A stretch of DNA of 64,000 nucleotides from an uncultured Bacilli bacterium (GCA_944326155.1 CALVCV010000001.1:194664-258663); one strand, 5' to 3'. Shown: positions 4,541 to 64,000, counted from the stretch's first letter. A program made the numbers and translations. The notes: generated by a model from the sequence alone, not told the origin.

Positions 4541-4580
4541 TCTTTCACCATGCTATTTGAATTTATTTTAAAAAAATTTT

Positions 4581-5525: not shown

Positions 5526-5736
5526 ATTTTTCCTTTTTTTGTCAAAATATATATTTATTATATCATATTTTATACAAAAATTTAATTTTTTAGTTTTATT
5601 TTTTAATATTTTTTCGTAAAATATATCTATATAAAAGTTATTTTAAAAATTTTACTTATGTTTTTTTGCTACTAAGTGTATCTTTGATCATTACAATTGT
5701 ACTAAATATCATCATTATAAGTGATATATAAAACTG

Positions 5737-6544: not shown

Positions 6545-6825
6545 ATCAAAAAATACTTCTTCTTAAATTTGTATATATTTTATAAACAATTAACCTTATT
6601 ATGATGTTATGATTAAATAAATATTAACTCTATTAGTTCTCACATATTTTAAGTTTTTTATAAAAGAGACTACTATTTGATTTATACTTTTTCATATTTA
6701 AATAGAATTTATTATGCTTCTCGTAGATATTCTATAACCATAATTCCAAAAATTATCAATAGTTTTTATTTTTATTTGCTTCAACAATTTTTTTAGGGAT
6801 ATTCTATCTTCGACGACTCTCAAAC

Positions 6826-16450: not shown

Positions 16451-16688
16451 AATTTTCCTCCTTAAAGTTTGATAAATCAAGTATATAATAAAAGTCATCT
16501 TTAACAAAATATCCTATTTTATACTTTTAAAAATTTTCTTGCTATTTTTAATATTTTTTGCTTTATTTTTAAACATTTAAATTAGATTTTAAATTGATTT
16601 TTTACATAATTGACAAATCCTTATTTTTAATTACATTCTAGTATTTTTTTCAATTTTTTGTTCACAATAACAATATATGGAGGAAAAT

Positions 16689-17693
16689 ATGAAAAATAAC
16701 ACTTTTCAATTTTTATTTTTTACTGGTTTTTTATTAATAGGCGCCGCATCTCTTGTTACTTCTAATAATATTATGGCCAATTTTTCTAACAATGGTTATC
16801 TAGTTTATCTTTTTTTATTACCACTAATATTACTACTACCATTATTACTATCAAATCATAAAGTTACCCTCAAAATATGCTTTACTCATCCTATTTTAAA
16901 AATATTGTTTTTATCATATCAAATATTGAGCAATTTTATACTTATTACTTCTTATTTAAAAGTAACTAATGATTACTACTATAGTCTTACTTCACCTACA
17001 ATTATTTTTATTATTTTTCTCTTTGCAAGTCTTTTTTTTACAAATTATGGAATTAGAAATATATTGCATATCGGTTTTGTCTTATCTTGTATTACTCTAA
17101 CGTTAATGTTATTCCCTCTCACATCAAATGCAGATTATGATTTTGTTTTATTAAACAATACTTCTTTAGAATTAAATTTGGATATATCTATTTTAGGATT
17201 TTTATTTATTTATTTAGATAGTTTTCTTCTACTTGTTTTTAATCCTTCATCTAATATTTCAAAAAAACATTTTTTTATACTTTTTTTAATTATTTCTTTA
17301 ATTAATACAGGATTAATTTTACAAAATTATCTTTTATTTGACTTTCAATATTTTTTAACTAGAAAGTTCCCTTATATTACAAAATATTTAGTTTTTAGCA
17401 ATTATTATCATTATCTTCATCTAGATTTATTTTATTTAATTTTTATTACTATTTATTTTTTATTTAAATTAAGTATTAATATTGAATATTCTAGAATTAT
17501 TTTAGAAATTAAAAGAAATTCTTATAAAATTTTTTTGATACCACTTTTTTTATTTGTTTTGATTTATATTTCACCATATTTTGATTTGACTGTGAAAAAC
17601 TTAAATTGGTTAATGTTTTATTGCACACTAATTATTTTTAGTTTTTTTATTTTATTAAAAATATTTATTTTTAAAAGGAGAAAAAATGAATAG
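16689..17693 (+). CDS. spore germination protein, GerAB-like (APC-superfamily permease subunit)
   Basis: ~10 TM; first gene of B-A-C receptor operon; GGAGGA RBS 6 nt upstream of ATG 16689. Confidence 0.7.
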   Translation: MKNNTFQFLFFTGFLLIGAASLVTSNNIMANFSNNGYLVYLFLLPLILLLPLLLSNHKVTLKICFTHPILKILFLSYQILSNFILITSYLKVTNDYYYSLTSPTIIFIIFLFASLFFTNYGIRNILHIGFVLSCITLTLMLFPLTSNADYDFVLLNNTSLELNLDISILGFLFIYLDSFLLLVFNPSSNISKKHFFILFLIISLINTGLILQNYLLFDFQYFLTRKFPYITKYLVFSNYYHYLHLDLFYLIFITIYFLFKLSINIEYSRIILEIKRNSYKIFLIPLFLFVLIYISPYFDLTVKNLNWLMFYCTLIIFSFFILLKIFIFKRRKNE

Positions 17694-19056
17694 TTATATA
17701 GAATCTTTTATCAAAAAAGCTGAATCTACTGATGATATTTGTGTGGCTAACTGTAGAGTGCAGCAATTAAAATATAAAATAATTTATATGATTGATTATG
17801 TAGATATTAAAAACTTTGATTTGCAAGTCAAACCTCTAATAAACCTTGAAAATTTAGACCATCTTCAATTTCTTTTCAATGGTCTTTGTAAAAAAATTAC
17901 TGATATTACTCAATCAAATTTAGAATTTCTTTTATATAGTGGGAAAATTTTAGTATTTTTTGATTCCTATTACTATTCTTTTGAGTTTGGTAATCGTCCC
18001 AAGCGATCACTAGGTGCTAGTAAAATTGATCCTGAAGATCCAATGGCTAGTGTTGAATCACTTATAGAAGATTTAAATGTTAATCTTGCATTAATTAAAA
18101 AAAGACTAAAAACTACAGATTTAAAAGTTAATAAATATCAACTTGGAATTTTTTCTAAAACTGAATGCGCTGTACTTTATCTTGAATCTTTTCATGATAA
18201 AAATAGTCTTAAAAAGACTTTAAATTCTTTAAAATCAATGAAAAACCAATTTGTCACTTCAATAGATGATATTAATATTTTATATGATAACAATTCTTTA
18301 TTACCACAAGTTTTTAATACAAGTTCACCAGAAATTATTATAGATGCTATCATTAAAGGAAAAATTGTCATATTATTAGATAATGCACCTATTGCGAGTA
18401 TTGTGCCAGCAAATTTATCTACCTTTACTACTTCAAAATCTTATGTCAATACTCCTAAATTTTTTGCAAAATTTAATCACATTCTAATATCTATTTTTTT
18501 CTTTATCTCTCTTTTTATGATTGGTTTAATAATTGCCATTATTAATTTTCATCCTAGCATTCTTTCCATACCTTTGCTTGCCAATATTAAAATTACTGAA
18601 AGAGGAACAAATTGGTCAATGTTTTACGAAGTTTTAATTGTCTACTTTTTATTTGAATTTTATCGTTTTGCTACTAGCAGATCTACTAGCAATTATATTC
18701 AAAATATTATTATTATTCTAGGAGGTCTTTTCATCGGACAAAACGCAATCCAATCTGGTACCATTGGTTCAACTGTCCTATTTATGACTTCTATTTCTTA
18801 TATTGCAGTTTTTGCGGTTACAAGTAATGTATATATGATTACAACGATAAATATTTTACGTGTTTTTATTTTAATTATGTCTTATGCTATGGGGATACTT
18901 GGTTTTTTAGTGGCCTCACTCATTACTATTTTTTATTTGTACAAACAGCAAAATAATTCTAATTACTATTTATATCCTTTTATTCCTTTTAATAAAGAGG
19001 ATATATTACGTTTTTTTGTACCTGAACGAAAAGCAAAAACGAAGGTGACAAAATGA
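17686..19056 (+). CDS. spore germination protein, GerAA-like (A subunit)
   Basis: DLNVNLALIKKRLKT and IVILLDNAPIASIVPANL match conserved GerA-family blocks; C-terminal 4-5 TM. Confidence 0.8.
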   Translation: MNSYIESFIKKAESTDDICVANCRVQQLKYKIIYMIDYVDIKNFDLQVKPLINLENLDHLQFLFNGLCKKITDITQSNLEFLLYSGKILVFFDSYYYSFEFGNRPKRSLGASKIDPEDPMASVESLIEDLNVNLALIKKRLKTTDLKVNKYQLGIFSKTECAVLYLESFHDKNSLKKTLNSLKSMKNQFVTSIDDINILYDNNSLLPQVFNTSSPEIIIDAIIKGKIVILLDNAPIASIVPANLSTFTTSKSYVNTPKFFAKFNHILISIFFFISLFMIGLIIAIINFHPSILSIPLLANIKITERGTNWSMFYEVLIVYFLFEFYRFATSRSTSNYIQNIIIILGGLFIGQNAIQSGTIGSTVLFMTSISYIAVFAVTSNVYMITTINILRVFILIMSYAMGILGFLVASLITIFYLYKQQNNSNYYLYPFIPFNKEDILRFFVPERKAKTKVTK

Positions 19057-20093
19057 AAAAAATTATCATTACCTTCATAATCATTTTTTCATTTATACCT
19101 TTTATAACCAAAAAAAATGATTATAAAGATATTAGTAATATTGTTTATGTAAGTAGTATTGGATTAGATTATGATAATGTAACTAATGAATATATTATTT
19201 ATTACTATATTTTAAATAATTTTAATTTAACTAGTGCCCAAATTTCCTCAAGTAATATTGATGATTTATCCTATACCGTAAAAGTTCAAGAAAAAAATTT
19301 TGCTGAAGCCTTTAGTTCAATCAAAAAAAAGATTAATAATAGTATTAATTACACACATTTGAATACTATTATTTTATCAAGGAATTTTATTGGTAAAGAC
19401 CATCTACTCCATCTTTATCATTATATTCGAGATTTAACATCAATTTATTTAGATTTTTATATTTTTACGACAGATTCTGAAATAGAAGATTTGTATAATA
19501 TTCGAAATTTTTCGGATGTTTCAGCTTATCATACAATTCTTGTTACCCCTAATCTTATTAAAACTTACAAATTAATTACATTTGTACATTTTGCAAAACT
19601 AATTTTAAAGCCTAATTATACTCTTCTCATCCCTCATCTTACAAGTGTGATGGATACTTTTTCCAAACAAGATAGTGATTTTTTATCATTAGAAATTGAT
19701 GGCTATAGTATATTAAAAAATGATTTTAGTTATAAAACATATCTTGCTAAAGATTATCCACAACTTTTATTATTAATTAATTTACAAGATCAAACCTTTA
19801 GTATAGACGAGTATGAACTATATTTAAAAGATGGTAAATATAAAATAAAAAAACTAAATAATGATATTTTAATTTATTATAAAATATACGCTGTAATTAA
19901 TCTTAATCCAAACGATGAAAATTTAGTTAATATTAAAGAAAAACTAGAGCCAAAAATACAAACAATAATTAAAGATTTAATAAATGCTACAAAACAAGAT
20001 AATATCGATATTTTTAACATAAATTATATAATTGGTCCAGAATCATTAACAAACAAAAAGATTAAAATTATTGTAGATTTAGATTTAAATTAA
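19053..20093 (+). CDS. spore germination protein, Ger(x)C-like, N-terminal TM anchor instead of lipobox
   Basis: SSIGLDYD block typical of GerC N-domain; 346 aa; no cysteine in signal region. Confidence 0.6.
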   Translation: MKKIIITFIIIFSFIPFITKKNDYKDISNIVYVSSIGLDYDNVTNEYIIYYYILNNFNLTSAQISSSNIDDLSYTVKVQEKNFAEAFSSIKKKINNSINYTHLNTIILSRNFIGKDHLLHLYHYIRDLTSIYLDFYIFTTDSEIEDLYNIRNFSDVSAYHTILVTPNLIKTYKLITFVHFAKLILKPNYTLLIPHLTSVMDTFSKQDSDFLSLEIDGYSILKNDFSYKTYLAKDYPQLLLLINLQDQTFSIDEYELYLKDGKYKIKKLNNDILIYYKIYAVINLNPNDENLVNIKEKLEPKIQTIIKDLINATKQDNIDIFNINYIIGPESLTNKKIKIIVDLDLN

Positions 20094-41975: not shown

Positions 41976-42060
41976 CGACTTTCTTTTCTAATTATATCAA
42001 ATTTTGTATTTTTTTGCAAGCAAAAATTTTAATGTAAGTATAAAAGGTAAAGTCAAAAAA

Positions 42061-42096
42061 ACACTATAGAAATCATTGATTCTATAGTGTTTTTTA
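42061..42096 (-). terminator. rho-independent terminator of the giant lipoprotein gene
   Basis: ACACTATAGAAatcattgaTTCTATAGTGT followed on minus strand by T-run (plus-strand aaaaaa 42055..42060). Confidence 0.6.
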
Positions 42097-42217: not shown

Positions 42218-45200
42218 TTATCTTGCAAAAACGCCATTATTCCAAATTCTACTTGCAGGATATGTTCCATCCCATTGTTCCCAAGTAGTTGTACCAGGAA
42301 TAACACTATGCAATGTAATTGATCTTGTTTCGCCATTTAACTCAACTGTTAATACATATGACACGGTTGTAGTTTCTTCAGGTGCATTAATAACGCGTCC
42401 AGTATTATCAACAATATCAGGATTATTAGATAAGATAGAAATATTCGCTTCTGAATAATTCTTTTGAATCTCATATTGTAATTCTACCATTTCCATAAAC
42501 GTATCCCAATATGAACCAGCAATCATAGTTTGTGGACAATTTTTCCCACTCCAAGTATTATGCATCTTAACTCTTGTTGTGTCTAAATCATTTCTTAACA
42601 AGATATCAGCTACAAGTTGTGCTGTTCTTTGGAACGTATCATAAATATCTCCAGATAAATTAGAACACATTTCAATACCTATTGAATTGTTATTACCACC
42701 ACGTGAGCCAATTTGGTTATAACTAAACCATAATGGACCACCAATATAGTAATATCCATCAATAACATCCCAAACAGGTCCTAAAATTGTGAAATTTTCT
42801 GCAGTAGGAGCAGCACCATTAATTAAAGGAGCCTCAACTGTTGTTGTAACACCATTTACAGTTACATAATATTTAGAACCATTTTGAGCGATACCAAATG
42901 TAGGTGCTACTTTTTCAGTTGCAACAGCATTTGTTTTAACCCATTCAAATGTAGATGATGTGCCATCACCAGCATGGTATGCAATATATTTTTCAGGAAC
43001 AACGCCATATATTGCATCATTACCTACTGTGTAATGAATTGATGTTTCGCCACTAGACATACCAGAGGCAATTGAAACTACTGTACCAGTAAGAGTTGCT
43101 GTATCATGAACAGTAACAAATTCAATTGTATCTTGAGGTCTACGTTCTTTATGGTTATTTGGATTACTTTCTGTAGTTGCATAATATGTTTCATCAACTA
43201 CAAATTCATCAAATAAATACTTATTAACACTTCCATATGTAGGAACATAAACTCTTTCAGTACCATCATTATATAATGAGATATTACCAGTTTCTACTAC
43301 CGCGAAATTGCTATTTACAAGTAAAGCAAGTAATTTATCAATAGCAGTATCACCACTTATTGCACCAACCTTAATGCAAACTGTTATGTTAATATCAGTA
43401 CCCTCGATACTTACTTTTACAGTAGCTTCACCATTAGCAACAGCAGTTACAAGTCCTGTATCAGAAACAGTTAAAATATCAGTATCACTAGATTCATATT
43501 TAATTGTAGAACCTTCCATATCTTTTCCATGTGCAGTAGCAATAATTTGAAGTGTATCATCGATATTAATTGTACCATTATATTGTTCTTCAAATGTTAC
43601 ATCAATTGTGTTAAGTGAATATACAGTAATATCATGACTATATGATACTTTATTCAAGTAATCATAAATTGTGATTGTTGCTGTACCTTCATTAACTGCT
43701 GTAACTAAGCCAGTACTTGATACTGTAAGAATATCGGTATTATTTGAAGAATAGAATAAATCTTTAAAATAAGCATCTGCAGGTTCAACACTTGCTACAA
43801 TTTGGAAAGTTTGACCTTTAGTTAATTCATCACAAATCGCATCAACTTTTATACCTGTAACAGGATTTAATTCTTTCCATTTTGCAGTAAGTTTTAAATC
43901 ACCACTAATAGTTTCTAAACTTTCATATAAAATATCATTTTCATCGTACCAACCTAAGAATTCATATCCTAAGTTTCCAGGAACAATAAGAGGTGTACTA
44001 TATCTTGAAGGAACAACTAATGTATCACCAGCAGGTACTTCATTGAAAAAGTACACTGTTGCTGGATTATCAGCTGATATATCTTCAATTGGAATGTCAA
44101 AAGCAACCATTTGTCCTACAGCTATTTTACTAATAGCGCTCGAAACACTACCATAACTACCGTATGAACTTGAAATTGTAATTACATATTCAGCACCTTC
44201 TGCCCAACTAGATGGACCAGAATTAAGTACAGAAAGTACTTCATAAATACCAGTTTCTATATTCTTTGCAATATAGATACGATCAGAGAATGTTGCTAAT
44301 GGATCATATTGATTTGTACCAATAAATATGTCACTAGTATATCTTCCTCCCCAGAAAGTACCATTATTATAATTGTAATTATTAACTGACAATTGTGTAG
44401 TAGCACTAGTACCATTTGCAACTAATAATTCTTCTGAATATCCACCATTAAAATCATAAGTTACATCATATATTTCACCTTCAAGTACTTCCCATTCAGC
44501 TACTAATATAATATTACCTTTAGATGTAGCAGGAATTTCTGCAACATAATCACCATTTAATGCCCAACCTAAGAATACAAAATTCAATCTTGTTGGTGTA
44601 GGTAATGCAATTGGTTCTGTATTGTAACTATTATAAGCTGTTGGATAAGTACCTTTTAAAGTACCACCATTTAATTCATAAGTAATCGTATAGAATTCAA
44701 GAGGTGTAGCTTCTTCAGTAGTTGGTGCAGTACTTAATGTAGTACCATAAGTCTTAAGGTGTTTAAATAATGCTGCATGAACACTTAAATCAGTTATTAC
44801 TTGTCCATCATTATCTTCATAATAGTTAGCACCAAATTCTGCTAAATGTGGATTAGTTGTTTCAGTATCAGAACCACTATAACTACCAAAGTAATGAGTA
44901 GCAGGAAGACCTAAAAATTGATTATTTTCAACTTTACAACTCCAAATAGAAGCTGTAGCACCATTATTACGTAAGTATAGATAATTGTAGCAATCGTCAA
45001 ATACATTATCAGTAATTTCCCATGCTGTCTTTTGTTCTTGATATACATGAGCTGCGATAGCACCATTGTATGGAGCTGCACTAGGATCAGAATTACCAAG
45101 TTGCTTAAATGTATTATTTGTTACATAAACAGTTGTACTTGTTCCTGCAGGACCAGATAGTGCATATAAGAAAATTGCATTATAGCCATTATCAGCAACA

Positions 45201-48200
45201 GTTTGTTCAAAATGATTGTTTGTGAATGAAATCAAGCCTTGATTATATCCACCCTCTGCTCTAATTGCGTCACGATCAAAATCAACAAATGTATTTCCTT
45301 CAACTGAAATATTAACAATTCTATTTACTAAAATATTAACATCACTAACATTTGTAAATTTATTATTTGCAAAATAGAAATCATTTGTAGAACCACCATT
45401 AGGTAAATTAAAATCAATAAATCCTTTCATTTGATAACGATTAATTACCCAAGGAGTTGTAGATTCAGTTGTATCATAAACTAAATTATTAATAAATGCA
45501 AAATTATAATAATTAGCACTTTCATTAGCCACAATTCTAGCATCACCAGTAAATGATAATCCATCAATTGTTAAATTAGTTGCTTCATTTGGAAGAGTAA
45601 TAACACCTGTTAAAACTGCTTCCTCTTCTCTTAAATCAGAATTAGCATCAACACCAGCGTTAGGTCCAGCAATTGTAATATTAGCTAATGAAATTGTAAC
45701 ATCTTCATCATATGTACCAACTAATAAAATAATCTTAGTGCCATCTTCAGCATCTGCTAAAGCTGCTGCTAATGTTGGATAATAATAATCTTCTCCTACA
45801 CCTACATATAATGCATCTTCACGCCATCTTGCTGTGAGAGTTACATCTGCACTTGTACCAGCTACAATTGCTTCAACTTTTTGATCATCTAGATACCAAC
45901 CAACAAATATTAAATCACCATTTGTAGGAACTGGAAGTCTATCTAAACCTAATGCATTATCATACATAGTTGGAGCATCTGATGGTAAATTTCCACCATT
46001 CAATACATATTTAATTGCATATGTTTCAGCTTCATCATCAATATATGCTGGAACATCTTCTTCATTTTCATAGTATGTTTCCCAACCATCTGTACCTATA
46101 AATTTTCCTTCAACAGGAGTAACATCATAATAGTTATTAGAACCATCAACTGTAAATGAGTTGTCATTCTTAATATAATATGTAGCAAGGCAGTTTAATA
46201 ATTTATTATAGTTAATATGAACATCGAAGTTATCAGCAATAGCATTAGAATTAGCATTCATTCTAACTAACATATATGAATCATTAACTGTATTATATTG
46301 GAATTCAAGAACTACTTTATCATCTTCACCACCATTATAAGTAGCAAGTGTGATAGCAGCATGGCTTCCTGGAGTTTGACCGCAATCAACAAATGTATTA
46401 TTCTTGATTTCATATGTACCACCAGCATAAGATAACAACCAAATTACGTATTGAGAGTATTTTTCAAAATAGTTATTAACAATCTTAACATCACCTTTTA
46501 CACCAAATGCTGCTTTGTTATCAATCTTAATACCATCATTGTAATTTGTTCCACTACCAACGAATGAACAATCTTTGATAGTTAAGTTAACGATTTGCAT
46601 ACCATATAAAATCATTGGTCTACCAGTTGAACCTTCATACTTAATATTTGATAATTCTAAATTTTCAAATAAGGCATTTGTATTACCAGTTTCTGGTACA
46701 AAATAAATTGGAGCAGTAGCACTGTCAGTAGCAGTTGCGTTAACTGTTGATGCATAACTGTAAATATTTGTTAATTTTGTATTGCTAACACCAGTAGGTG
46801 AACCACAAATACGTCCTTTTTCAGTTAATGCAATACCATCAATTACTACATTGTTTGCAGCAATAACAACATCGCTTGTAAAAATTGTTTCTTCTAATCT
46901 ACTTTGTTCAACAGGATTAATTCCCCAATTAGCACCTTTAATAGTTACTTCTTTAGAAATAGTAAATCCTTGATATGTTCCTGCAACAATTAAAATTTCA
47001 TCACCATCGTTTGCAGCTTCCAATGCAGCTTCAATTGTAGCATAAGCTTCAGGATCATTAGAATCAACAACTAATTCTTTTGGTTCAGCGCCAACTTCCT
47101 TCCATTCAGCAACAAGTGTAATATCACCTCTTTGATCGGGACCAATTTCAGTAACAACTTCACCATCTAATAACCAACCTACAAATTCAAATCCTTCTTT
47201 AGTTGGAACTGGAAGTGTAGTTGTTTGGTTAATTGCATATTCAGTAGGTAAATTATCGCATTCACCACCATCTAATTCAAAAGTAATTGCATATGTAGCT
47301 TGCTCCCATTTTGCATAATATTTACCTGCGCCTACAACAGTAGTTACAGCTTCACCTGCAAAAGTTTCATCAAGATACCAGCCAGCAAATACATAACCAT
47401 CTTTTGTTGGAGTTGGTAATATTTCACCTACTGCCATTTCTTGAGTAGTTAAACCTTCGGCATTTACAAACTCAACTTCTACTTTTTCAATTTCCCAACC
47501 AGCATATAATCTAACATTGCCAACTGTATCAGCACTAATTTCAGTTATAACTTGTGTACATTCAGGATCTAAGAACCAACCCTTAAATACATAACCATTC
47601 TTTGTAGCTGTAGCAGTTAATGTTAAAACTGTACCTGCAACATATTCAACTGGAGCATCAACTGAAAGTGTACCACCATCTAATTCATAACTAATAGCAT
47701 ATTTTACATCTTCATCAATATTTAAGTACTTAGCATATAAAGTTAAGTCACCCATTGTACCAGTAGGTACTTCAAACCATACATCACCAGTAAATTCAGC
47801 ATTTTGATACCAACCTACAAATTTCTTACCTTCAGCTGGAACTGGAGTTGGAAGTACAAATGGTAATGTTTCTAATGTATAAGTAGAAGTAACAGGCTTT
47901 TCTTCATAAACAGCTTCTGGTGCAAAGTCTAAAACTTTATTTACAACTGCTTCATCAGCAAAGTTTGCAGTCTCCCAATATTGATTACCAGCACGATATT
48001 GCATTTTTTGAACAAAGCCTTTAAATGCATAATAGAATGCATAATTATCATCAGCAACCTCAACATACGTTGGATCTTTATACTTAGTTAAAATTCTATT
48101 ATATTCACCAACAGTATTGACATCTAACAAGTATTCTAAGAACCAAGCATATTTTTCATACATCTTGACACCATTAACAGTTGATAAATAGAATGTACCA

Positions 48201-51200
48201 AAGTTAAGATCAGCTGCAGAAGGCCATGCTGAAGTACCTAATTCACTAGGTTCAGTATATGTTACACCGTCAAATGCTGAATAATCTTTTAATAGATCTT
48301 CAACAATTTGTTCAACAGTATCATAACCGCTTACTCTAACAGTTTCAACAGGAAGTTCACCATCTCCTACTTCATAAGTAATGGTATAAGTAACTGCTTC
48401 CCAACAAGCATATACAATCTTATCGCCTTTATCGCTAGCAGTAAATTCACTAACAGCTTGTGTACATTCAGGATCTAAGAACCAACCAACAAAAGTATAG
48501 CCAGGTTTTGTTGCGCCCATAAGAACTACACCAGTTTCTTCAACATATGAAGTAGGTGCACCTTCCTCTAATGTACCACCATCTAATTCATAATTAATAT
48601 TATAAGTATCATAATTAATTACTGAATCTGACCATCTAGCATATAATTTTATATTACCAATATTTTCAATAGTCAATTGCTCAATCTTGCCATTTTTAAG
48701 ATCAGGATTTGTATACCAACCAACAAATGTAGCCCCTTCTTTATTAGGTGTTGCAATTTCTAGAGGTAATTCTAAAACAGTATAACTATATTTTGCTTCA
48801 ATACCTACTTGAATATCTTTAGTAGGACATGCAGCCCATAAAGCATCACCATCAACATCTGAAAAATTCATTGATAATGGTGAAATTTTAGTTAAAAGTG
48901 TTTGTTGCAATAATGATGCAAAATTACTTCTTGCATACTTATTGAAATTAGCAGCACCAGCATTTAAAGTTAAATAAGCTTTGCCAGCATAATCAACTTC
49001 TTGTGCTTTATCATTAATGAAATCTAGTAACCAATTCCATTTAGCTGCCATTTCTTCATTTTTAAAGAATCCATATAAACCATATTGATTTGATTTACCA
49101 TAGAATGATTCTGCTGTAACACCAGTTAAGCCAGTGAAACTTGCATAATCATTTACAAATGCAGCAACTAAATCATCAAATGTGTCATATAATGGAGCAA
49201 CACTTGCAGTTAAAAATTGACCGCCATTAGTTTCATATTCAATTGTATAAGTTTCTAATTCCCAAGATGCATATAATGTAACTACTGTATCATCGGCTAA
49301 TCCACTAGGAATACTAGTTACAGCTTTTGTACATTCTACATCTTCAAACCAACCTTTAAATAAATAACCTACTTTAGTTGGAGTTGGAAGAGTAGTTAAT
49401 CCATCTTTTGCAATAAATGTTAATGGATCACTTGCTGTAAGAACACCACCATCTAATTGATAATCTATTTCTAATTCTGCTTCTGGATTATACCATTTTG
49501 CTACAAGAACTAAATTACCAGTGGTACCTTGTGAAATTTTATTTACTTGTGTTCCGTCTAAGAACCATCCTATAAATTCACAACCAGCCTTAACTGGAAT
49601 TACTAATAATACTTCATCATTTACTGTATAAGTATCTTGAGGTTCAGCACCATTAGATAAATAATCCCAGAAACCATTTGCTAGTGCATCATCAGTATAG
49701 TCTTGGCTTGCAGGCCAACTTGAACGGAAATCTTCAAATAGGAATGCACCTAATGAATATCTCCAATATGATTCATTACCAGTTTCTAAATATTCTTTAT
49801 TTGCATCAGTAGCAGTTGCAAGAATGTAATCTTTTAACCATGCCCATTTAGCAGCATAATCTTCACTACTAAAGATACCATAAATTGCTGTAAATACATC
49901 GGCAAAACCAATTCCATCAGTAGTGCCTTTAACCATACAATTTGGTTTAGAAGTCTTACCATAGAATGCCATTGCATCATTTAAGAAATCATCAACCATT
50001 TCCTCACGACTGATATATGGATAAATATCAAATAATCCATCATTTAAATCATAAGTAATCGTATATTCAACTATTGCCCATTCAGCTACAAAAGTAAGAT
50101 CTCCAGTTGTGCCTTTAGTAATTGTTTCAACTAATTCACCATCTAACATCCAACCAACAAATTCATAACCAGTCTTATATAGAACAGAAGGTAAAACAAC
50201 TTCATCCTCCACTGTATAAGTAGTAGGAATATTAGGTTCTGGTAAATCAACTGTATATAACCAGAAATCATTTCCACCAACTTCAGGTGAATAATCACAT
50301 CCATATGCCGCATTTCCACCTTTTTCACCAGGTGCACAGGCATTTAAAAAATTATGAATTTCACCTCGTGCTTCAGCTTGTCCATCTGCTGCACTTAACA
50401 CTGCTTTGCCATTAGCTAAACGAGTATCATTAATGAAGTCTAATAACCAACCCCATTTTGCGCCATATTCAGTACTTACTAAGAAATTATAGCCAGCGCT
50501 TGAATTATCAGCCATCCAACTTCTTGCGAAGAAATCTGATCCATCAGCAGCAACAGTTTTACCACTATGTGCATTAAAATCTACAACAAAATCAGCAACC
50601 ATTGCAGCACGATCTTTATTGTAAGGCCATACAACACCTGTTAAATCTTGCCAAGCTCCACCTACTGTATCAAATGTAATATTATAAGTGATAACTTCCC
50701 ATTCAGCAACAAGTGTAACAGCACCTGTTGTACCACTAACAATCTCTTCAACCTTAGTACCATCTAATGTCCAACCTAGGAACTTATAGCCAAGTTTTGT
50801 AGGTTCAGCTAATTTTAATGGTAATTTGTTGATATCATATTGAGCAGGATTTTCATCTGCATTTTGACCACCATTAAGCTCATAAGTAATATCAAAAATT
50901 GATACTTCCCATTTAGCATATAATGTGATATCACCAGTTGAATTAGCAGCAATTTCTTCAATTGGATTACCTGTGAATTCAGGATTATCATACCAACCTA
51001 AGAAATTATATCCAAATTTGGTTGCGGCTTTAATTGCAATTGGAAGATTTAAAACATTATATCCAACAGGATTAGATGGATCATTTGTTCCACCATTAAG
51101 CTCATATTGAATCGCAAAATCAGCTTCTAATACTTCAATAACGAAAGTATAATCACGATATTGTGTTTCATCTAATTCATCAGTCGCACGTACAATAATA

Positions 51201-51724
51201 ACTGCAGTACCTTTTGCTACTCCTGTAATTACTCCATCTTCATCTACTGTTGCAATTTCAGGATTAGCAGACGTAAAACTCATTAAAGCATTTGCATATT
51301 CTGGAACAAACTTATATGTTAAAGTTTGTGTAGTACCTTTTAACATTGTAAGTTGTAATGGTTCAAATTCGACTTCTGGAAGCGAATTTGCCACTACTCT
51401 TACTGTTGCAATATCATATGCAACAGGATGTTCAGAACATACAACTTTAATTATCGTCTCCCCTGGTTGTAAACCTGTTAGTTTACCATCAGAGTAGGAT
51501 GCAATTTGATTGTCATATGATGTGTATTCAATAGTTACAACACCAACGTTTGACCCTTTGTTAACTATTGGGGAAACATCAATGGTTTGACCAACATTTA
51601 CTTCATATACGTCATTGTCAAATGTTAATCTTACATAATCATTATTGTTTGTACATGAGGCAATACCAAATAGTAGTCCCACAACAGTTAATAATAAGAA
51701 AAATCTTTTTCTAATGTTTAACAT
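42218..51724 (-). CDS. giant (3168 aa) cell-surface lipoprotein with a C-terminal split Amidase_2 (N-acetylmuramoyl-L-alanine amidase) module
   Basis: Domain order from N to C: signal peptide + lipobox LFGIASC, 2 Big_2 domains, ~14 Listeria-Bacteroides (Flg_new) repeats of which 4 carry inserted modules, 2 right-handed beta-helix modules, 2 Big_2 domains, then the amidase module. Amidase motifs VTVHDTA, SIHYTVGNDAIYGVV, AYHAG, NSIGIEM, SGKNCPQTM. Confidence 0.85.
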   Translation of the reverse strand: MLNIRKRFFLLLTVVGLLFGIASCTNNNDYVRLTFDNDVYEVNVGQTIDVSPIVNKGSNVGVVTIEYTSYDNQIASYSDGKLTGLQPGETIIKVVCSEHPVAYDIATVRVVANSLPEVEFEPLQLTMLKGTTQTLTYKFVPEYANALMSFTSANPEIATVDEDGVITGVAKGTAVIIVRATDELDETQYRDYTFVIEVLEADFAIQYELNGGTNDPSNPVGYNVLNLPIAIKAATKFGYNFLGWYDNPEFTGNPIEEIAANSTGDITLYAKWEVSIFDITYELNGGQNADENPAQYDINKLPLKLAEPTKLGYKFLGWTLDGTKVEEIVSGTTGAVTLVAEWEVITYNITFDTVGGAWQDLTGVVWPYNKDRAAMVADFVVDFNAHSGKTVAADGSDFFARSWMADNSSAGYNFLVSTEYGAKWGWLLDFINDTRLANGKAVLSAADGQAEARGEIHNFLNACAPGEKGGNAAYGCDYSPEVGGNDFWLYTVDLPEPNIPTTYTVEDEVVLPSVLYKTGYEFVGWMLDGELVETITKGTTGDLTFVAEWAIVEYTITYDLNDGLFDIYPYISREEMVDDFLNDAMAFYGKTSKPNCMVKGTTDGIGFADVFTAIYGIFSSEDYAAKWAWLKDYILATATDANKEYLETGNESYWRYSLGAFLFEDFRSSWPASQDYTDDALANGFWDYLSNGAEPQDTYTVNDEVLLVIPVKAGCEFIGWFLDGTQVNKISQGTTGNLVLVAKWYNPEAELEIDYQLDGGVLTASDPLTFIAKDGLTTLPTPTKVGYLFKGWFEDVECTKAVTSIPSGLADDTVVTLYASWELETYTIEYETNGGQFLTASVAPLYDTFDDLVAAFVNDYASFTGLTGVTAESFYGKSNQYGLYGFFKNEEMAAKWNWLLDFINDKAQEVDYAGKAYLTLNAGAANFNKYARSNFASLLQQTLLTKISPLSMNFSDVDGDALWAACPTKDIQVGIEAKYSYTVLELPLEIATPNKEGATFVGWYTNPDLKNGKIEQLTIENIGNIKLYARWSDSVINYDTYNINYELDGGTLEEGAPTSYVEETGVVLMGATKPGYTFVGWFLDPECTQAVSEFTASDKGDKIVYACWEAVTYTITYEVGDGELPVETVRVSGYDTVEQIVEDLLKDYSAFDGVTYTEPSELGTSAWPSAADLNFGTFYLSTVNGVKMYEKYAWFLEYLLDVNTVGEYNRILTKYKDPTYVEVADDNYAFYYAFKGFVQKMQYRAGNQYWETANFADEAVVNKVLDFAPEAVYEEKPVTSTYTLETLPFVLPTPVPAEGKKFVGWYQNAEFTGDVWFEVPTGTMGDLTLYAKYLNIDEDVKYAISYELDGGTLSVDAPVEYVAGTVLTLTATATKNGYVFKGWFLDPECTQVITEISADTVGNVRLYAGWEIEKVEVEFVNAEGLTTQEMAVGEILPTPTKDGYVFAGWYLDETFAGEAVTTVVGAGKYYAKWEQATYAITFELDGGECDNLPTEYAINQTTTLPVPTKEGFEFVGWLLDGEVVTEIGPDQRGDITLVAEWKEVGAEPKELVVDSNDPEAYATIEAALEAANDGDEILIVAGTYQGFTISKEVTIKGANWGINPVEQSRLEETIFTSDVVIAANNVVIDGIALTEKGRICGSPTGVSNTKLTNIYSYASTVNATATDSATAPIYFVPETGNTNALFENLELSNIKYEGSTGRPMILYGMQIVNLTIKDCSFVGSGTNYNDGIKIDNKAAFGVKGDVKIVNNYFEKYSQYVIWLLSYAGGTYEIKNNTFVDCGQTPGSHAAITLATYNGGEDDKVVLEFQYNTVNDSYMLVRMNANSNAIADNFDVHINYNKLLNCLATYYIKNDNSFTVDGSNNYYDVTPVEGKFIGTDGWETYYENEEDVPAYIDDEAETYAIKYVLNGGNLPSDAPTMYDNALGLDRLPVPTNGDLIFVGWYLDDQKVEAIVAGTSADVTLTARWREDALYVGVGEDYYYPTLAAALADAEDGTKIILLVGTYDEDVTISLANITIAGPNAGVDANSDLREEEAVLTGVITLPNEATNLTIDGLSFTGDARIVANESANYYNFAFINNLVYDTTESTTPWVINRYQMKGFIDFNLPNGGSTNDFYFANNKFTNVSDVNILVNRIVNISVEGNTFVDFDRDAIRAEGGYNQGLISFTNNHFEQTVADNGYNAIFLYALSGPAGTSTTVYVTNNTFKQLGNSDPSAAPYNGAIAAHVYQEQKTAWEITDNVFDDCYNYLYLRNNGATASIWSCKVENNQFLGLPATHYFGSYSGSDTETTNPHLAEFGANYYEDNDGQVITDLSVHAALFKHLKTYGTTLSTAPTTEEATPLEFYTITYELNGGTLKGTYPTAYNSYNTEPIALPTPTRLNFVFLGWALNGDYVAEIPATSKGNIILVAEWEVLEGEIYDVTYDFNGGYSEELLVANGTSATTQLSVNNYNYNNGTFWGGRYTSDIFIGTNQYDPLATFSDRIYIAKNIETGIYEVLSVLNSGPSSWAEGAEYVITISSSYGSYGSVSSAISKIAVGQMVAFDIPIEDISADNPATVYFFNEVPAGDTLVVPSRYSTPLIVPGNLGYEFLGWYDENDILYESLETISGDLKLTAKWKELNPVTGIKVDAICDELTKGQTFQIVASVEPADAYFKDLFYSSNNTDILTVSSTGLVTAVNEGTATITIYDYLNKVSYSHDITVYSLNTIDVTFEEQYNGTINIDDTLQIIATAHGKDMEGSTIKYESSDTDILTVSDTGLVTAVANGEATVKVSIEGTDINITVCIKVGAISGDTAIDKLLALLVNSNFAVVETGNISLYNDGTERVYVPTYGSVNKYLFDEFVVDETYYATTESNPNNHKERRPQDTIEFVTVHDTATLTGTVVSIASGMSSGETSIHYTVGNDAIYGVVPEKYIAYHAGDGTSSTFEWVKTNAVATEKVAPTFGIAQNGSKYYVTVNGVTTTVEAPLINGAAPTAENFTILGPVWDVIDGYYYIGGPLWFSYNQIGSRGGNNNSIGIEMCSNLSGDIYDTFQRTAQLVADILLRNDLDTTRVKMHNTWSGKNCPQTMIAGSYWDTFMEMVELQYEIQKNYSEANISILSNNPDIVDNTGRVINAPEETTTVSYVLTVELNGETRSITLHSVIPGTTTWEQWDGTYPASRIWNNGVFAR

Positions 51725-51756
51725 GTTATTCTCCTTTTCGCTTGAATTTACACTTT

Positions 51757-51785
51757 ATTATATCACTTTTTAAAAAAACACGCAA
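51757..51785 (-). promoter_or_regulatory. sigma-A promoter with extended -10 for giant lipoprotein gene
   Basis: minus-strand TTGCGT-17-TGaTATAAT, ~28 nt before AAGGAG RBS. Confidence 0.55.
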
Positions 51786-51871
51786 GCGTTTTCATATTTT
51801 AAATTGTTTTTTTTATATTTTTTTAAAATTTGACAATTTTTTAAAAATCTTGCTTTATTTTTTTTACATTA

Positions 51872-51915
51872 TTTTTATGTTTTTTTGGTCTATAAACATC
51901 AAAAAAACATAAAAA
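51872..51915. terminator. 15-bp perfect A/T-only inverted repeat between the two paralogous lipoprotein genes (weak terminator or operator-like palindrome)
   Basis: TTTTTATGTTTTTTTggtctataaacatcAAAAAAACATAAAAA. Confidence 0.35.
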
Positions 51916-51948
51916 TATAGCATAAATTTTTTATAAAATGTTTATTTT

Positions 51949-54231
51949 TTAACCAAATAAGAAATGGCAATTACCTGGAATAATAGTTGATAAGGTTATA
52001 GTTTTAGATACGCCATCTTTTGTGACAGTTACATTGTAACTAACCACTTTATCTTTTAAATCTTGTTTTATAACACGGCCATTATTTTTTACAAATTCTG
52101 CGTCTAAAGATTCAAAAGTAATTTCATAGTCACCAAAGTCTTTTAAAATGCGATATTCAAAAGAAACAAGAGTTAAGAAATTATCCCATAAGCCATTATC
52201 TCGCATTGTTTGTGGACAATTTTTTCCACTAAAATAATGATGAGGTTTTACATCGTCAAGAGTTAAATTATTATCAATTAATAAATGGGCTACTAATTTA
52301 GCAGTTTTTTGCCATGTTAAGTATAAATCAGATCCTTGATTCACCATTGTTTCGATGCCAATACTATTTACATTACCACCTGTATTTGCAACACGTTTGT
52401 AAGTTGAACTCCACCATGTATCACCAATATAATATTTACCATTTTGAACAACAACACGGATGCCAGCATCATTAATCTCTGATGTTGTTGGAATTTCTTC
52501 GTTGTCTTTAAGTGGAGCTTTTACTAATGATTTTTCGCCATCTATTTCAAAATAACCATCTTCAGAAATTGTAACTTCCATTTTTGCGTTTGGTTTTGCA
52601 ACTAAACCAGATTCATTCAAATGATATTCTCTTGAACCATCTCCAGCATGATATGCTCTTTCATTATCAGGAATTTGATGATAAATACCTGTATCACCCG
52701 CTGAATAGTGCCAACTTGTTCCACCACCACCTACTTGTACATATCTTGCATGAGTAAGTGCATCAGCAGTATTAGCACTAGAGGCTGTATCATGTACGCA
52801 AATATAATATTTTTCATGTGTATCGCCAGGTCTATTTTCATCATTTAATGGTGTCATATAATCTTCATTTACAACATGATCTGCAAATAAGTAATTAGAT
52901 ACACTGCCACGTAGACGTAATCCATACACAAATTGATATCCTGTTACTGTAATTTGTTTAGTAATAACTTCATCAGCATTTGCTTCAACTAGAAGTTGTA
53001 ATAATTCATCTAGGCCGTCTAAATCTTCAACTATTGTTATTCCTAATGTAATATTAACATCAGGAAAATCTTCCAAACTTGCCATAATAGTTGTATAGCC
53101 TGTCGAAACCGGTGTAATTATACCATTATTATCAATTGTTAAAATTTCATCATTCATTGTAGTAAATTGAATTTTTGATAAATTTTGTTCTTCACTAAAA
53201 TATTTTTTAACAACACTTATGGTTAAACTATCTTCTAAATCAATGACTGTTGTATCAGCATGTAATTCCATCCTTGTGTATCCAAACATTGGAGTTAATA
53301 TTAAATCTCCAGTTGTTCCTACAGGAATACTTTTCCAAAGTATACTTGTATCCCAAGATGCAACTGCCGTATTTTTATATTCATTAGCTATATCAGGTGT
53401 TGCCCATCCTAAAAATAAATATCCATCTTTAGTTGGAACTGGTAATTCAAGAGGTAATTGTGATTGTTTGTAACTCGTAATATCAGTTTCTGGCAAGATA
53501 ACATTTGCTTTAGAAGCATATTCAATATCAAATGTTTCTTCGCTTATTGTTAAAACTATTTGATCATATTCAGAATTATCAATTGTCTTAAAAGTAATTG
53601 TTACTTGACCTTCTTTTAATGCTTCTATTACACAAATATTTTCTGTTTGACTAACAACTTTTACCATTTTTTCAACATTAAATTCAAGTTGATATAACTT
53701 TCCACTAGTAAAATTTACTTCTATATTTTGTTGTTCACCAACCATCATTTCACTATTAGCAACAATTGCATCAATCTGCATAGATGGCAAAGGATTACCT
53801 TCTGTTTCACCACATCTTGAACATGTCTTTGGTGCTAGATAAGTTGCTTCAACCCAATCGTGACCTAACGCTTCAAGCGTTTCAATTATAATTTCATCAC
53901 AACGATTACAAGTAAACAATTTAGTACCTTCTTCTGTACAAGTTGGTTTATTTGTAATTACGCCTTCATTCCAATCATGACCTAACGCTTCACCATTAGT
54001 TGCTCCACATCTTATACATGTTTTTGATTTATCACATGTTGCATCAACCCAAATATGGCCCAAAGCCTCTCCTTCTGTAGCATTACAAACTGTACAAGTT
54101 TTAGGGGTGGTACAAGATGCTTCTTGCCAATGGTGTCCATTTTTTTCACATGTAGATTTTTTCTTACACGAAGCAAAACTGCATAACAGCACTATCATAA
54201 ATACGAATAAAATAGCTCTTCTAATTTTCAT
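51949..54231 (-). CDS. 760-aa lipoprotein paralog with a C-terminal split Amidase_2 module and an N-terminal Cys-rich GHxW repeat array
   Basis: Lipobox FASC; 4 GHxW repeats of pattern C..KTC..C....GEALGH.W; one Big_2, one Flg_new repeat, a second Big_2; C-terminal ~355 aa clearly paralogous to the giant gene C-terminus (ICVHDTA, SWHYS, AYHAG, NSIGIE, SGKNCPQTM). Confidence 0.85.
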   Translation of the reverse strand: MKIRRAILFVFMIVLLCSFASCKKKSTCEKNGHHWQEASCTTPKTCTVCNATEGEALGHIWVDATCDKSKTCIRCGATNGEALGHDWNEGVITNKPTCTEEGTKLFTCNRCDEIIIETLEALGHDWVEATYLAPKTCSRCGETEGNPLPSMQIDAIVANSEMMVGEQQNIEVNFTSGKLYQLEFNVEKMVKVVSQTENICVIEALKEGQVTITFKTIDNSEYDQIVLTISEETFDIEYASKANVILPETDITSYKQSQLPLELPVPTKDGYLFLGWATPDIANEYKNTAVASWDTSILWKSIPVGTTGDLILTPMFGYTRMELHADTTVIDLEDSLTISVVKKYFSEEQNLSKIQFTTMNDEILTIDNNGIITPVSTGYTTIMASLEDFPDVNITLGITIVEDLDGLDELLQLLVEANADEVITKQITVTGYQFVYGLRLRGSVSNYLFADHVVNEDYMTPLNDENRPGDTHEKYYICVHDTASSANTADALTHARYVQVGGGGTSWHYSAGDTGIYHQIPDNERAYHAGDGSREYHLNESGLVAKPNAKMEVTISEDGYFEIDGEKSLVKAPLKDNEEIPTTSEINDAGIRVVVQNGKYYIGDTWWSSTYKRVANTGGNVNSIGIETMVNQGSDLYLTWQKTAKLVAHLLIDNNLTLDDVKPHHYFSGKNCPQTMRDNGLWDNFLTLVSFEYRILKDFGDYEITFESLDAEFVKNNGRVIKQDLKDKVVSYNVTVTKDGVSKTITLSTIIPGNCHFLFG

Positions 54232-54268: not shown

Positions 54269-54297
54269 ATTATACTAGTTATAAATCTATTTGTAAA
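54269..54297 (-). promoter_or_regulatory. sigma-A promoter for the 760-aa lipoprotein gene
   Basis: minus-strand TTTACA-17-TATAAT, followed by AGGAGAGG RBS. Confidence 0.5.
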
Positions 54298-54389: not shown

Positions 54390-54447
54390 AAAAAAAAGCA
54401 TTTCTTTTTTAGACAATTTTCTTGCCCAATTAGAAATGCTTTTTTTG
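54390..54447 (-). terminator. putative terminator downstream of dnaJ
   Basis: GCATTTCT ... AGAAATGC 8-bp stem with long loop, then T8 run on minus strand. Confidence 0.45.
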
Positions 54448-59132: not shown

Positions 59133-59159
59133 TTAGCACTCTAAATTGTTTGCTGCTAA
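59133..59159. promoter_or_regulatory. CIRCE-like operator 1 (overlaps TSS/5' UTR of hrcA)
   Basis: TTAGCACTC-N9-tgcTGCTAA (consensus TTAGCACTC-N9-GAGTGCTAA; left half perfect). Confidence 0.55.
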
Positions 59160-59160
59160 T

Positions 59161-59189
59161 ATTATACCATCTTTTTTTAGCACTGTCAA
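59161..59189 (-). promoter_or_regulatory. consensus sigma-A promoter of the hrcA-dnaK operon
   Basis: minus-strand TTGACA-17-TATAAT (plus-strand tgtcaa 59184..59189, attata 59161..59166). Confidence 0.6.
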
Positions 59190-59203
59190 CAGTTTAGTGC
59201 TAT
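59177..59203. promoter_or_regulatory. CIRCE-like operator 2 (overlaps the -35 element)
   Basis: TTAGCACTg-N9-tAGTGCTAt, good inverted repeat TAGCACT/AGTGCTA. Confidence 0.55.
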
Positions 59204-59259: not shown

Positions 59260-59880
59260 TCATTTTTTTAAATAATAATTATTTTTTATTTCATAATCTA
59301 AAGTCGTAAATTCATTATGACCAGGGTAAATAAAATAATTTTGTTTTAAATTTTTAATATTCTTTAAAGACTCTATTTGTGCGATGATATTACCAGTTGC
59401 AAGATCTGTTCTTCCAACTGAACCTTTAAACAAAGTATCACCTGAAAAAAGCAAATTATCAATTATATAACAAACTGAATCATCCGTATGTCCTGGTGTA
59501 AATAAAATTTGAACATAAAAATTAGCAAATTGTAATTTTTCATTATCTTTTAGAAAAACAAATTTATTATCTTCAATATAAGGAAGTTTATCACATCCAA
59601 AATATTTTGCATAACTTGTATCCAAATCAAAAATTTTATCTTTAGCTTTTTTATGTAAATAACATTTTACATCATAGGTTTTGAGGACATCTTCTAACTC
59701 TTTAAAGTGATCATAATGACCATGTGTAAGAAAAACTGCACATAATATCTTATTTTCTAAAAATTGTTTTAATGTTTTAACATTATTTGCAGGATCAATA
59801 ACAATTGCATATTGATCTTGAGTTATCAAATAAGTATTACAATTTTCTTGACTATCGCAAAATACTTCAACGGATAACAT
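59260..59880 (-). CDS. MBL-fold metallo-hydrolase
   Basis: THGHYDH metal-binding motif, 206 aa. Confidence 0.8.
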   Translation of the reverse strand: MLSVEVFCDSQENCNTYLITQDQYAIVIDPANNVKTLKQFLENKILCAVFLTHGHYDHFKELEDVLKTYDVKCYLHKKAKDKIFDLDTSYAKYFGCDKLPYIEDNKFVFLKDNEKLQFANFYVQILFTPGHTDDSVCYIIDNLLFSGDTLFKGSVGRTDLATGNIIAQIESLKNIKNLKQNYFIYPGHNEFTTLDYEIKNNYYLKK

Positions 59881-63625: not shown

Positions 63626-64000
63626 TCATTTTTTTTATCTGTTGAGTTTTTCCAATATCTATTTTTTCAAGCTGTTTTAAAATCTTTTTTTCTCTTAAAC
63701 GATTAAGTTTAGTATACCACTTTTCACTTTTACGAGATATAGATTGTACTAAAATACTTGTTACGCCTAATCTATTAGCACATGCAATATCCGTTAAAAG
63801 TTGATCACCAATCAAAATTATTTCTTCTTTTTTTAACTGTTCTTTTTGTATAAAATGATTCAACTTTTTCTTAAAAGGTTTTCTAGCATAAGTTATATAA
63901 CCATTAACCTTAAATTCTTTAACAAAACGACTTACTCTTTTTTTACCATTATTTGAGACAATATAAATTCGATACCCAATTTTAAGCAATTTTTGATTCA
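63597..64000 (-). CDS. yqeG: YqeG family HAD-IIIA phosphatase, C-terminal part (N-terminus beyond window end)
   Basis: IYIVSNNGKKRV and GDQLLTDIACANRLG HAD motifs; reading frame stays open to nt 64000. Confidence 0.75.
   Translation of the reverse strand, partial: NQKLLKIGYRIYIVSNNGKKRVSRFVKEFKVNGYITYARKPFKKKLNHFIQKEQLKKEEIILIGDQLLTDIACANRLGVTSILVQSISRKSEKWYTKLNRLREKKILKQLEKIDIGKTQQIKKMIEKSSDIDE

Follow-up and report, generated by a model that had tools for sequence, protein, structure and literature searches.

Two adjacent genes on the minus strand of a 64,000-nt stretch of DNA from an uncultured Bacilli bacterium (GCA_944326155.1, CALVCV010000001.1:194664-258663) encode proteins that, judged from their sequences, almost certainly cut bacterial cell wall. 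The two proteins, which we call BIG (3168 aa) and SMALL (760 aa), have the sequence pattern of lipoproteins and end in a shared amidase module whose predicted structure is of a new, four-part kind, in which eight strands are inserted into the catalytic core. By the window we mean the whole of this 64-kb stretch. An initial annotation, made from the sequence alone, had described two minus-strand lipoprotein genes of these lengths between dnaJ and rsmE-mtaB with a common C-terminal amidase module, and in this it was borne out: both open reading frames (ORFs) were recovered with lipoboxes; hrcA, grpE, dnaK and dnaJ lie on one side of the pair and rsmE, mtaB, a DEAD helicase gene and nfo on the other; and the two products are 36% identical over 438 aa (BLASTP, E 6e-65), a span that takes in one Big_2 domain and the C-terminal module. 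The nucleotide sequence of BIG was identical in two other metagenome assemblies, and the exact SMALL protein was found on 11 metagenome contigs.

Pattern inspection of the N-termini gave, in each protein, a basic n-region followed by a hydrophobic core and a lipobox: MLNIRKRFFLLLTVVGLLFGIAS precedes C24 of BIG, the lipobox reading LLFGIAS before the cysteine, and MKIRRAILFVFMIVLLCSFAS precedes C22 of SMALL (LLCSFAS), where the Phe at position -3 is unusual. The same lipoprotein pattern is present at the N-termini of orthologues from relatives L001-L003 and L035.

The amidase module

Both proteins matched the Amidase_2 family (PF01510) above the Pfam gathering cut-off of 26 bits, BIG with 57.1 bits and SMALL with 45.2, and both translations hold the motifs VHDTA, S.HY, AYHAGDG, NSIGIE and SGKNCPQTM. 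The Pfam match in BIG covers 200 aa although the profile has only 131 positions; a phmmer search of PDB sequences matched XlyA (2e-12) and PlyL/PlyG in two stretches, one on either side of the insertion, and the matches to PHROGs endolysin and amidase families (1e-25 to 1e-30) were likewise split in two. In the phmmer alignment the His of VHDTA, the Glu of SIGIE and the H..GK.C motif are in register with XlyA and PlyL. The zinc ligands, which are the His of VHDTA, the His of MHNTW and the Cys of GKNCP, align to those of the same enzymes and are present in both window proteins, so that the profile search proposed with the initial annotation, a match to Amidase_2 with the His-His-Cys ligands aligned, came out in its favour. 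Residues H85, Y110, E230, H267, K273 and C275 (module numbering) are invariant across 73 aligned family members; we take E230 to be the counterpart of PlyL E90, and K273 and Y110 those of T7 lysozyme K128 and Y46.

An AlphaFold (AF2) model of the module, built from the 73-member alignment, reached a predicted local distance difference test (pLDDT) of 92.2 and a predicted template modelling score (pTM) of 0.92, and has the alpha/beta fold of T7 lysozyme and peptidoglycan recognition proteins (PGRPs); among solved structures, the autolysins AmiA and LytA are some of its nearest relatives. Four parts can be distinguished: an N-terminal domain of ~70 aa, the catalytic core, the insertion of ~80 aa and a C-terminal beta domain. 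The insertion is predicted as eight beta strands between the strand of AYHAGD and that of SIGIE, with an invariant Tyr (Y204). Viral structure predictions matched the module core only (TMq ~0.33), the complete four-part module being absent from those searched; NCBIfam holds no specific model for it, and in Pfam only the generic Amidase_2 matches. Sequence and model together make it highly probable that BIG and SMALL are active surface amidases.

A family of amidase-tailed lipoproteins

In an exhaustive search with the 88-aa insertion as query, 46 representatives of 50%-identity clusters were found, mostly 800-2411 aa long and with the module at the C-terminus, and 33 of 42 representatives start with a lipobox. 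Amidase_2 was present in all eight representatives examined, Flg_new and Big_2 in nearly all of these. A word-indexed search with the module returned 398 homologues; among the best 120, about half are 348-366 aa long without a signal peptide and 18 are lipoproteins. BIG is the longest family member seen. As the 46 representatives are mostly large lipoproteins, the architecture is a populated though uncharacterised one and the pair is not unique, and the suggestion of a candidate uncharacterised cell-surface system was overstated, BIG and SMALL being two members of a large amidase-tailed lipoprotein family that runs through a lineage of uncultured gut Bacilli with small genomes. One of the eight has collagen triple-helix repeats directly after the lipobox and another a GDSL/SGNH esterase domain that may act as an O-acetyl esterase on peptidoglycan (P0121 and P0126).

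One module paralogue without a signal peptide, P0111 (351 aa), is encoded immediately downstream of a 515-aa glycoside hydrolase family 3 (GH3) enzyme that also lacks one. By analogy, this GH3-amidase pair looks like NagZ plus AmpD, the cytosolic muropeptide-processing enzymes. The pair occupies 4373-7056 of locus L026, from a related gut bacterium, and is seen also in L027 and L028, with a second GH3, a pyroglutamyl peptidase (C15) and a CN-hydrolase nearby.

Age of the locus and mosaic structure of BIG

The initial annotation took the pair to be inserted into a conserved gene order and named synteny comparison as a check, and on this point it was not supported as stated: what it had named as refuting an insertion, the presence of the same genes in this interval among relatives, was largely borne out. 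In L035 (DnaJ 78% and RsmE 61% identical) dnaJ is followed by a SMALL-like gene of 729 aa, then by a BIG-like one of 2086 aa, rsmE and mtaB, and in L001-L004 a BIG orthologue of 3005-3207 aa lies directly upstream of rsmE, L001 having a SMALL orthologue as well. The module hidden Markov model (HMM) found amidase-tailed giants upstream of rsmE in L013, L014, L018 and L019, at ~50% RsmE identity; giant genes of this kind thus occupy the site in eight relatives, down to ~50% RsmE identity. By the standard set in the initial annotation, the two genes are old residents of a locus that is ancestral in the clade, and an insertion, if there was any, would be ancient. No integrase or transposase is adjacent to the pair, no phage genes flank it (dnaJ and rsmE are the flanks), and its GC content of 0.31-0.33 compares with 0.29-0.33 in the flanks, with unremarkable skew.

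The background against which the insertion had been proposed was sound. Among unrelated bacteria recovered with DnaJ, dnaJ followed by an ORF of ~300-315 aa, rsmE and mtaB, or dnaJ followed directly by rsmE, was common, and prmA was absent from the window as had been claimed, no PrmA family match being found in ORFs of at least 100 aa (the end-truncated 63597-63989 lay outside the scan). Nor was prmA at this site in any relative examined. In other relatives the place upstream of rsmE is taken by GH5 cellulases or an ABC transporter, with neither prmA nor dnaJ within 10 kb. A prmA displaced to just upstream of rsmE was considered and rejected, the ~300-aa ORFs there being ABC-2 permeases and the other neighbours GH5 cellulases. 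The cellulases (E ~1e-50) belong to more distant relatives (L006 8000-9409, L007 8007-9377 and L010 8231-9850), and in L007 a transglutaminase-like protein precedes the cellulase. Across the lineage, the site upstream of rsmE is a variable locus for surface or secreted proteins.

Sequence comparison portrays BIG as a mosaic. Over aa 1-1300 it shares 70-88% identity with its positional orthologues in L001 and L002, a level equal to or higher than the 72-80% of flanking housekeeping proteins in the same relatives; from ~aa 1400 on, which is the distal ~1800 aa (window 42218-47500), identity to these orthologues is 22-46%. The amidase modules fall into three types, with type A in window BIG and P0001-P0005, type B in all positional BIG orthologues and type C in the SMALL proteins, the last being closest to ~355-aa proteins without a signal peptide. 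Type-A tails elsewhere occupy other loci. That window BIG has a type-A tail and its orthologues a type-B one speaks for recombination between giant genes that are paralogues, by which the distal half and the amidase subtype would have been exchanged relative to the positional orthologues.

Spacer architecture

Pfam gave 13 Flg_new matches (7e-127) and three Big_2 matches (5e-30) in BIG. In the N-terminal half the lipobox is followed by two Ig-like domains and ~11 Flg_new repeats, four of them split by a helical domain; next come a ~350-aa region, one Flg_new repeat and a second ~350-aa region, 31% identical to the first; and at the C-terminal end there are two Flg_new repeats (one with an insert), two Big_2 domains and the amidase module. 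The four helical inserts, each nested in one Flg_new repeat, can be aligned with one another, have no Pfam family, and in a profile search gave 6 short fragments only. The insert of ~140 aa within Flg_new 13-14 has no Pfam family either. The array, called a stalk in the initial annotation, is not a simple one: it includes four nested helical domains, two pectin-lyase-fold-like regions and the further domain in Flg_new 13-14.

The beta-helix named in the same annotation was upheld in part: one of the two ~350-aa regions has a sub-threshold Pfam match and a low-confidence model agrees, but there was no firm profile match. Region 1 had no Pfam match, and a PDB sequence search with both regions gave nothing meaningful. 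The best fold match of the model (pLDDT 48) was a phage tailspike; an alpha-galactosidase, the adhesin PfbA and polysaccharide lyases came next. No homologues of region 1 were returned from an index that also missed the window's own proteins, so this result carries little weight.

SMALL is built differently near its anchor, where four Cys/His-rich mini-repeats sit in tandem directly after the lipobox. These may form a zinc- or disulfide-stabilised extracellular module; their only Pfam match was a borderline one to C1_1, probably spurious. Similar motifs, of the form H.H.F..G.C.CG, come after the lipobox in two lipoproteins encoded on either side of the GH3-amidase pair described above (L026 2994-4361 and 10910-12229). 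The remainder of the SMALL spacer gave sub-threshold Pfam matches to Big-like (1e-4), Big_2 (1.6e-4) and Flg_new (2.6e-4) domains.

Transcription signals

From the arrangement of signals, SMALL and BIG are likely transcribed separately from the dnaK operon, and they may be partly co-transcribed with one another. The initial annotation had excluded the pair from the heat-shock transcript, and we agree, because a strong terminator lies 3' of dnaJ and CIRCE-like inverted repeats are found upstream of hrcA only; each of the two repeats has three mismatches to the consensus, and ~0.01 such matches are expected by chance. Its further claim, that each gene has its own promoter and terminator, holds for the terminator of BIG but is weaker elsewhere: 3' of SMALL nothing was found beyond one AU-rich hairpin that lacks a U tract and one weak hairpin (-5.9 kcal/mol), and promoter-like sites occur in this AT-rich region at chance frequency (78 seen versus 77.6 by chance). 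The scanner did not call the extended -10 site before BIG (TGATATAAT), its -35 element matching at 3/6 positions only. Phase variation at homopolymer tracts was considered and rejected, both intergenic regions being equal in length across six assemblies; the SMALL-BIG intergenic region is identical in all six, and the dnaJ-SMALL region has two substitutions in three of them.

Table 1. Features of the SMALL-BIG locus and of the gerA-type operon in the window (aa, residue range in the protein)
Feature	Position	Strand	Basis or remark
BIG, predicted 3168-aa lipoprotein gene, including stop	42218..51724	-	ORF list, translation, Pfam
BIG signal peptide and lipobox, aa 1-24, Cys24	51653..51724	-	sequence MLNIRKRFFLLLTVVGLLFGIASC; kept in L001-L003 and L035
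BIG N-terminal Big_2 / Big-like pair, aa ~27-200	51125..51646	-	Pfam; boundaries approximate
BIG Flg_new (Listeria-Bacteroides repeat) array, aa ~203-1543	47096..51118	-	Pfam 7e-127; G.F.GW motif map
BIG helical inserts, four of ~140 aa, aa ~350-1295	47840..50677	-	motif AKW.WLLDFIND
BIG beta-helix-like region 1, aa ~1548-1895	46040..47083	-	31% identical to region 2
BIG beta-helix-like region 2, aa ~1968-2345	44690..45823	-	
BIG Flg_new 13-14, aa ~2347-2620, with unannotated ~140-aa insert	43865..44686	-	motif map
BIG distal Big_2 pair, aa ~2622-2786	43367..43861	-	Pfam Big_2, best stretch 2622-2686
BIG amidase module, aa 2789-3168: N-terminal accessory domain, Amidase_2 core, insertion, C-terminal beta domain	42221..43360	-	
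88-aa stretch of the BIG core (module aa 133-220) that takes in the ~80-aa insertion of eight beta strands	42701..42964	-	Pfam span, PDB/PHROGs, model
SMALL, predicted 760-aa lipoprotein gene, including stop	51949..54231	-	ORF list, translation
SMALL signal peptide and lipobox, aa 1-22, Cys22	54166..54231	-	sequence MKIRRAILFVFMIVLLCSFASC; L035 orthologue ...LFLTFTGC
SMALL Cys/His-rich repeats, four (GH.W..A.C..PKTC..C....GE.L), aa ~28-146	53794..54150	-	read from translation
SMALL Big-like / Flg_new / Big_2 spacer, aa ~150-394	53050..53784	-	aligns to BIG distal Big_2
SMALL amidase module, aa 395-760	51952..53049	-	Amidase_2 45.2 bits; 36% identical to BIG module; all catalytic residues present
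Promoter-like site upstream of SMALL, TTTACA-17-TATAAT	54269..54297	-	11/12 matches, the region's best
Promoter-like site upstream of BIG, TTGCGT-17 nt (spacer ends TG)-TATAAT, extended -10	51757..51785	-	read from sequence
Intrinsic terminator after dnaJ	54390..54446	-	hairpin -23 kcal/mol, then U8
Intrinsic terminator after BIG	42052..42095	-	~16-bp hairpin, -17.9 kcal/mol, then U-run
CIRCE-like inverted repeats upstream of hrcA	59133..59159 and 59177..59203	+	
gerA-type germinant receptor operon, complete	16677..20093	+	338-aa permease with 10 predicted transmembrane segments, GerAA (PF03323, 7e-69), GerAC

Host and lineage

By RsmE, the nearest reference genomes are 'Staphylococcus sp. CAG:324' at 72% and 'uncultured Mollicutes UMGS116' at 70% identity, and further metagenome-assembled genomes with close RsmE proteins are labelled Bacilli, which points to a lineage of uncultured gut Bacilli related to RF39, RFN20 and ML615J-28. 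The presence of a complete gerA-type operon, SepF and YlmH in the window indicates a walled, spore-forming host, and a wall-less host, which would have forced a foreign-peptidoglycan target, was ruled out by these same genes. The gerA operon implies a walled endospore former despite the 'Mollicutes' and 'Staphylococcus' labels on the nearest references. For the related orders, a mixture of walled and wall-less families, incomplete peptidoglycan precursor pathways with a possible dependence on scavenged muropeptides, the loss of most lyt/cwl hydrolases and, in RFN20 and ML615J-28, the loss of sortases have been predicted (PMC10868615).

Two other parts of the window drew our attention. At 31630-33912 (-) a GH4 glycosidase is paired with an ATPase of the BadF/BadG/BcrA/BcrD family, a family that includes sugar kinases; the pair is kept near this region in L006, L007 and L010, and a part in amino-sugar use is possible. 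At 59880-61229 (-), between a gene for an MBL-fold hydrolase and a small PRC-barrel gene, lies a 449-aa ORF for which no Pfam family, transmembrane segment or signal peptide was predicted and which showed only very weak similarity to ROK glucokinases.

Proposed function

We propose that BIG and SMALL are zinc N-acetylmuramoyl-L-alanine amidases of the endolysin/autolysin (Amidase_2) type that leave the cell by the Sec route and are lipid-anchored, in which the N-terminal cysteine would tether each protein to the membrane and leave the catalytic module at the membrane-distal C-terminus, the two paralogues thus acting at two distances from the membrane. The ~370-aa spacer of SMALL would keep its amidase in or just under the cell's own wall, likely for wall turnover or cell separation. 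The ~2,760-aa spacer of BIG, made up of Ig-like domains, Flg_new repeats and helical inserts together with the two pectin-lyase-fold regions, would project the amidase beyond the wall, where the beta-helix and Flg_new parts could bind glycans and the enzyme could strip stem peptides from outer layers, wall debris or neighbouring cells rather than from the inner wall of its own cell. Released fragments may feed muropeptide salvage, as hinted by the paralogues without signal peptides, one of them beside a cytosolic GH3. For the two-distance model, drawn from sequence and structure prediction, we consider the case about evenly balanced. That BIG scavenges or preys on foreign peptidoglycan is conceivable but doubtful. 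An equally tentative extension is that small-genome, auxotrophic gut Bacilli attack or harvest the peptidoglycan of neighbours or debris by means of tip-mounted, lipid-tethered amidases of endolysin type, which tailspike-like beta-helix and adhesin domains would precede and whose distal halves recombination would exchange, then import the muropeptides and process them with a cytosolic pair, the NagZ-like GH3 and the module paralogue without signal peptide, in the manner of NagZ and AmpD, a contact-dependent 'wall grazing'.

The mosaic distal half of BIG, the variable tethers of the family, the tailspike-like regions and the GH3-amidase pairing in a relative favour an outward role for BIG. Which peptidoglycan the two enzymes cut, that of their own wall or foreign material, is nevertheless something that we infer; the roles suggested in the initial annotation (cell separation, wall remodelling at a distance, lysis of neighbouring cells) are conjectural too, and several points weigh against the outward role. 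The model of the beta-helix region is of low confidence (pLDDT 48), the reach of a folded 3168-aa chain through a Gram-positive wall is an estimate, and the GH3 adjacency belongs to another genome and to another module subtype. The host organism is uncultured; the published predictions concern the named related orders (PMC10868615) and may not apply to this host. As the host is a walled spore-former, autolysis of its own wall alone could explain both genes, and a core physiological role would fit the housekeeping neighbours, the sigma-A-like promoters and the long-conserved locus.

These last points are the substance of the strongest competing explanation, in which both proteins are ordinary housekeeping autolysins working on their own wall, while the long N-terminal array serves as adhesin or spacer and has no bearing on the amidase target. 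Besides a walled, spore-forming host and an old locus among housekeeping genes, it can draw on the presence of AmiA and LytA among the closest solved relatives, and on the possibility that lipoprotein amidases replace the lyt/cwl hydrolases and sortases predicted to be lost in related orders (PMC10868615). It accords poorly with the family tethers, which range over ~0.8-3.2 kaa (thousand amino acids), include collagen-like spacers and are hard to square with an adjacent-wall target, and with the distal half and amidase subtype of BIG, which are swapped relative to the positional orthologues. To our knowledge, housekeeping autolysins are not usually mosaic. On balance we think this explanation a possible one, though rather unlikely.

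A role in sporulation or germination would have the membrane-anchored amidases take part in mother-cell lysis, engulfment or cortex processing. In B. subtilis the Amidase_2 enzyme CwlH acts in mother-cell lysis and membrane-anchored amidases act in engulfment and cortex processing, and a gerA-type operon lies in the same window as the pair; the promoter-like sites, however, resemble sigma-A rather than sporulation-sigma sites, and we know of no giant Flg_new or Big_2 arrays in sporulation amidases, which makes such a role improbable. Just as improbable is a reading of the two proteins as adhesins whose amidase module serves as a PGRP-like peptidoglycan-binding lectin and not as an enzyme. Flg_new and Big_2 arrays are typical of adhesins, and the adhesin PfbA was among the fold matches of the low-confidence beta-helix model, but the zinc ligands and catalytic residues are invariant across the 73 family members, and non-catalytic PGRPs typically lose the Cys ligand. 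A recent island or prophage remnant that left endolysin genes between dnaJ and rsmE is already largely refuted and very improbable: endolysins of phages and prophages are the closest matches to the catalytic core and prmA is missing where expected, but there are no flanking phage genes, both proteins have signal peptides and lipoboxes, GC and skew are as in the flanks, the arrangement is kept to ~60% RsmE identity with similar genes upstream of rsmE to ~50%, and the viral structure predictions are without the complete four-part module (TMq ~0.33).

RF39 / RFN20 / ML615J-28-type gut Bacilli, an abundant, uncultured, metabolically dependent group, are predicted to have lost sortases and classical autolysins, which raises the question of how they remodel their own wall. 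A lineage-wide family with diverse tether lengths and cytosolic paralogues provides candidates both for own-wall remodelling and for obtaining wall precursors from others. The chemistry is ordinary, and public annotation already calls relatives 'N-acetylmuramoyl-L-alanine amidase', but the module, with a high-confidence model and defined catalytic residues, is a testable enzyme and could be given the rank of a separate family.

Comparison with known systems

Like polymorphic toxins and contact-dependent effectors, BIG combines a conserved N-terminal part of 1300 aa with an exchanged distal half that carries a different amidase subtype. Unlike them, it has no immunity gene downstream (the 242-bp intergenic region to rsmE contains no ORF) and no dedicated secretion system is present, and the exchanged part is ~1800 aa long rather than a short toxin tip. 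The likeness of the BIG regions to tailspike depolymerases and to S. pneumoniae PfbA comes from the low-confidence model, with no sequence-level membership, and no catalytic residues could be assigned in the beta-helix-like regions. AmiD of E. coli and AmpDh2 of P. aeruginosa, outer-membrane lipoproteins with Amidase_2 domains, are only distant relatives; they are short, face the periplasm of a different envelope, and have neither a giant spacer nor such an insertion.

XlyA of the B. subtilis prophage PBSX and PlyL/PlyG of B. anthracis prophage and phage have cores of ~150 aa followed by a wall-binding domain, carry no signal peptide and depend on a holin for release. In BIG and SMALL, by contrast, the core is interrupted by the ~80-aa eight-strand insertion and accompanied by conserved N- and C-terminal accessory domains, and the proteins are, by sequence pattern, exported and lipid-anchored with no phage context; with dnaJ and rsmE as flanks and lipoprotein signal peptides in both proteins, the pair does not resemble a prophage lysis cassette. 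The autolysins AmiA of S. aureus Atl and LytA of S. pneumoniae, in which the amidase is N-terminal, are retained in the wall by GW/R or choline-binding repeats. No wall-binding repeats were detected in BIG or SMALL, which would instead be held by an N-terminal lipid and have a very long spacer with the amidase at its far, C-terminal end.

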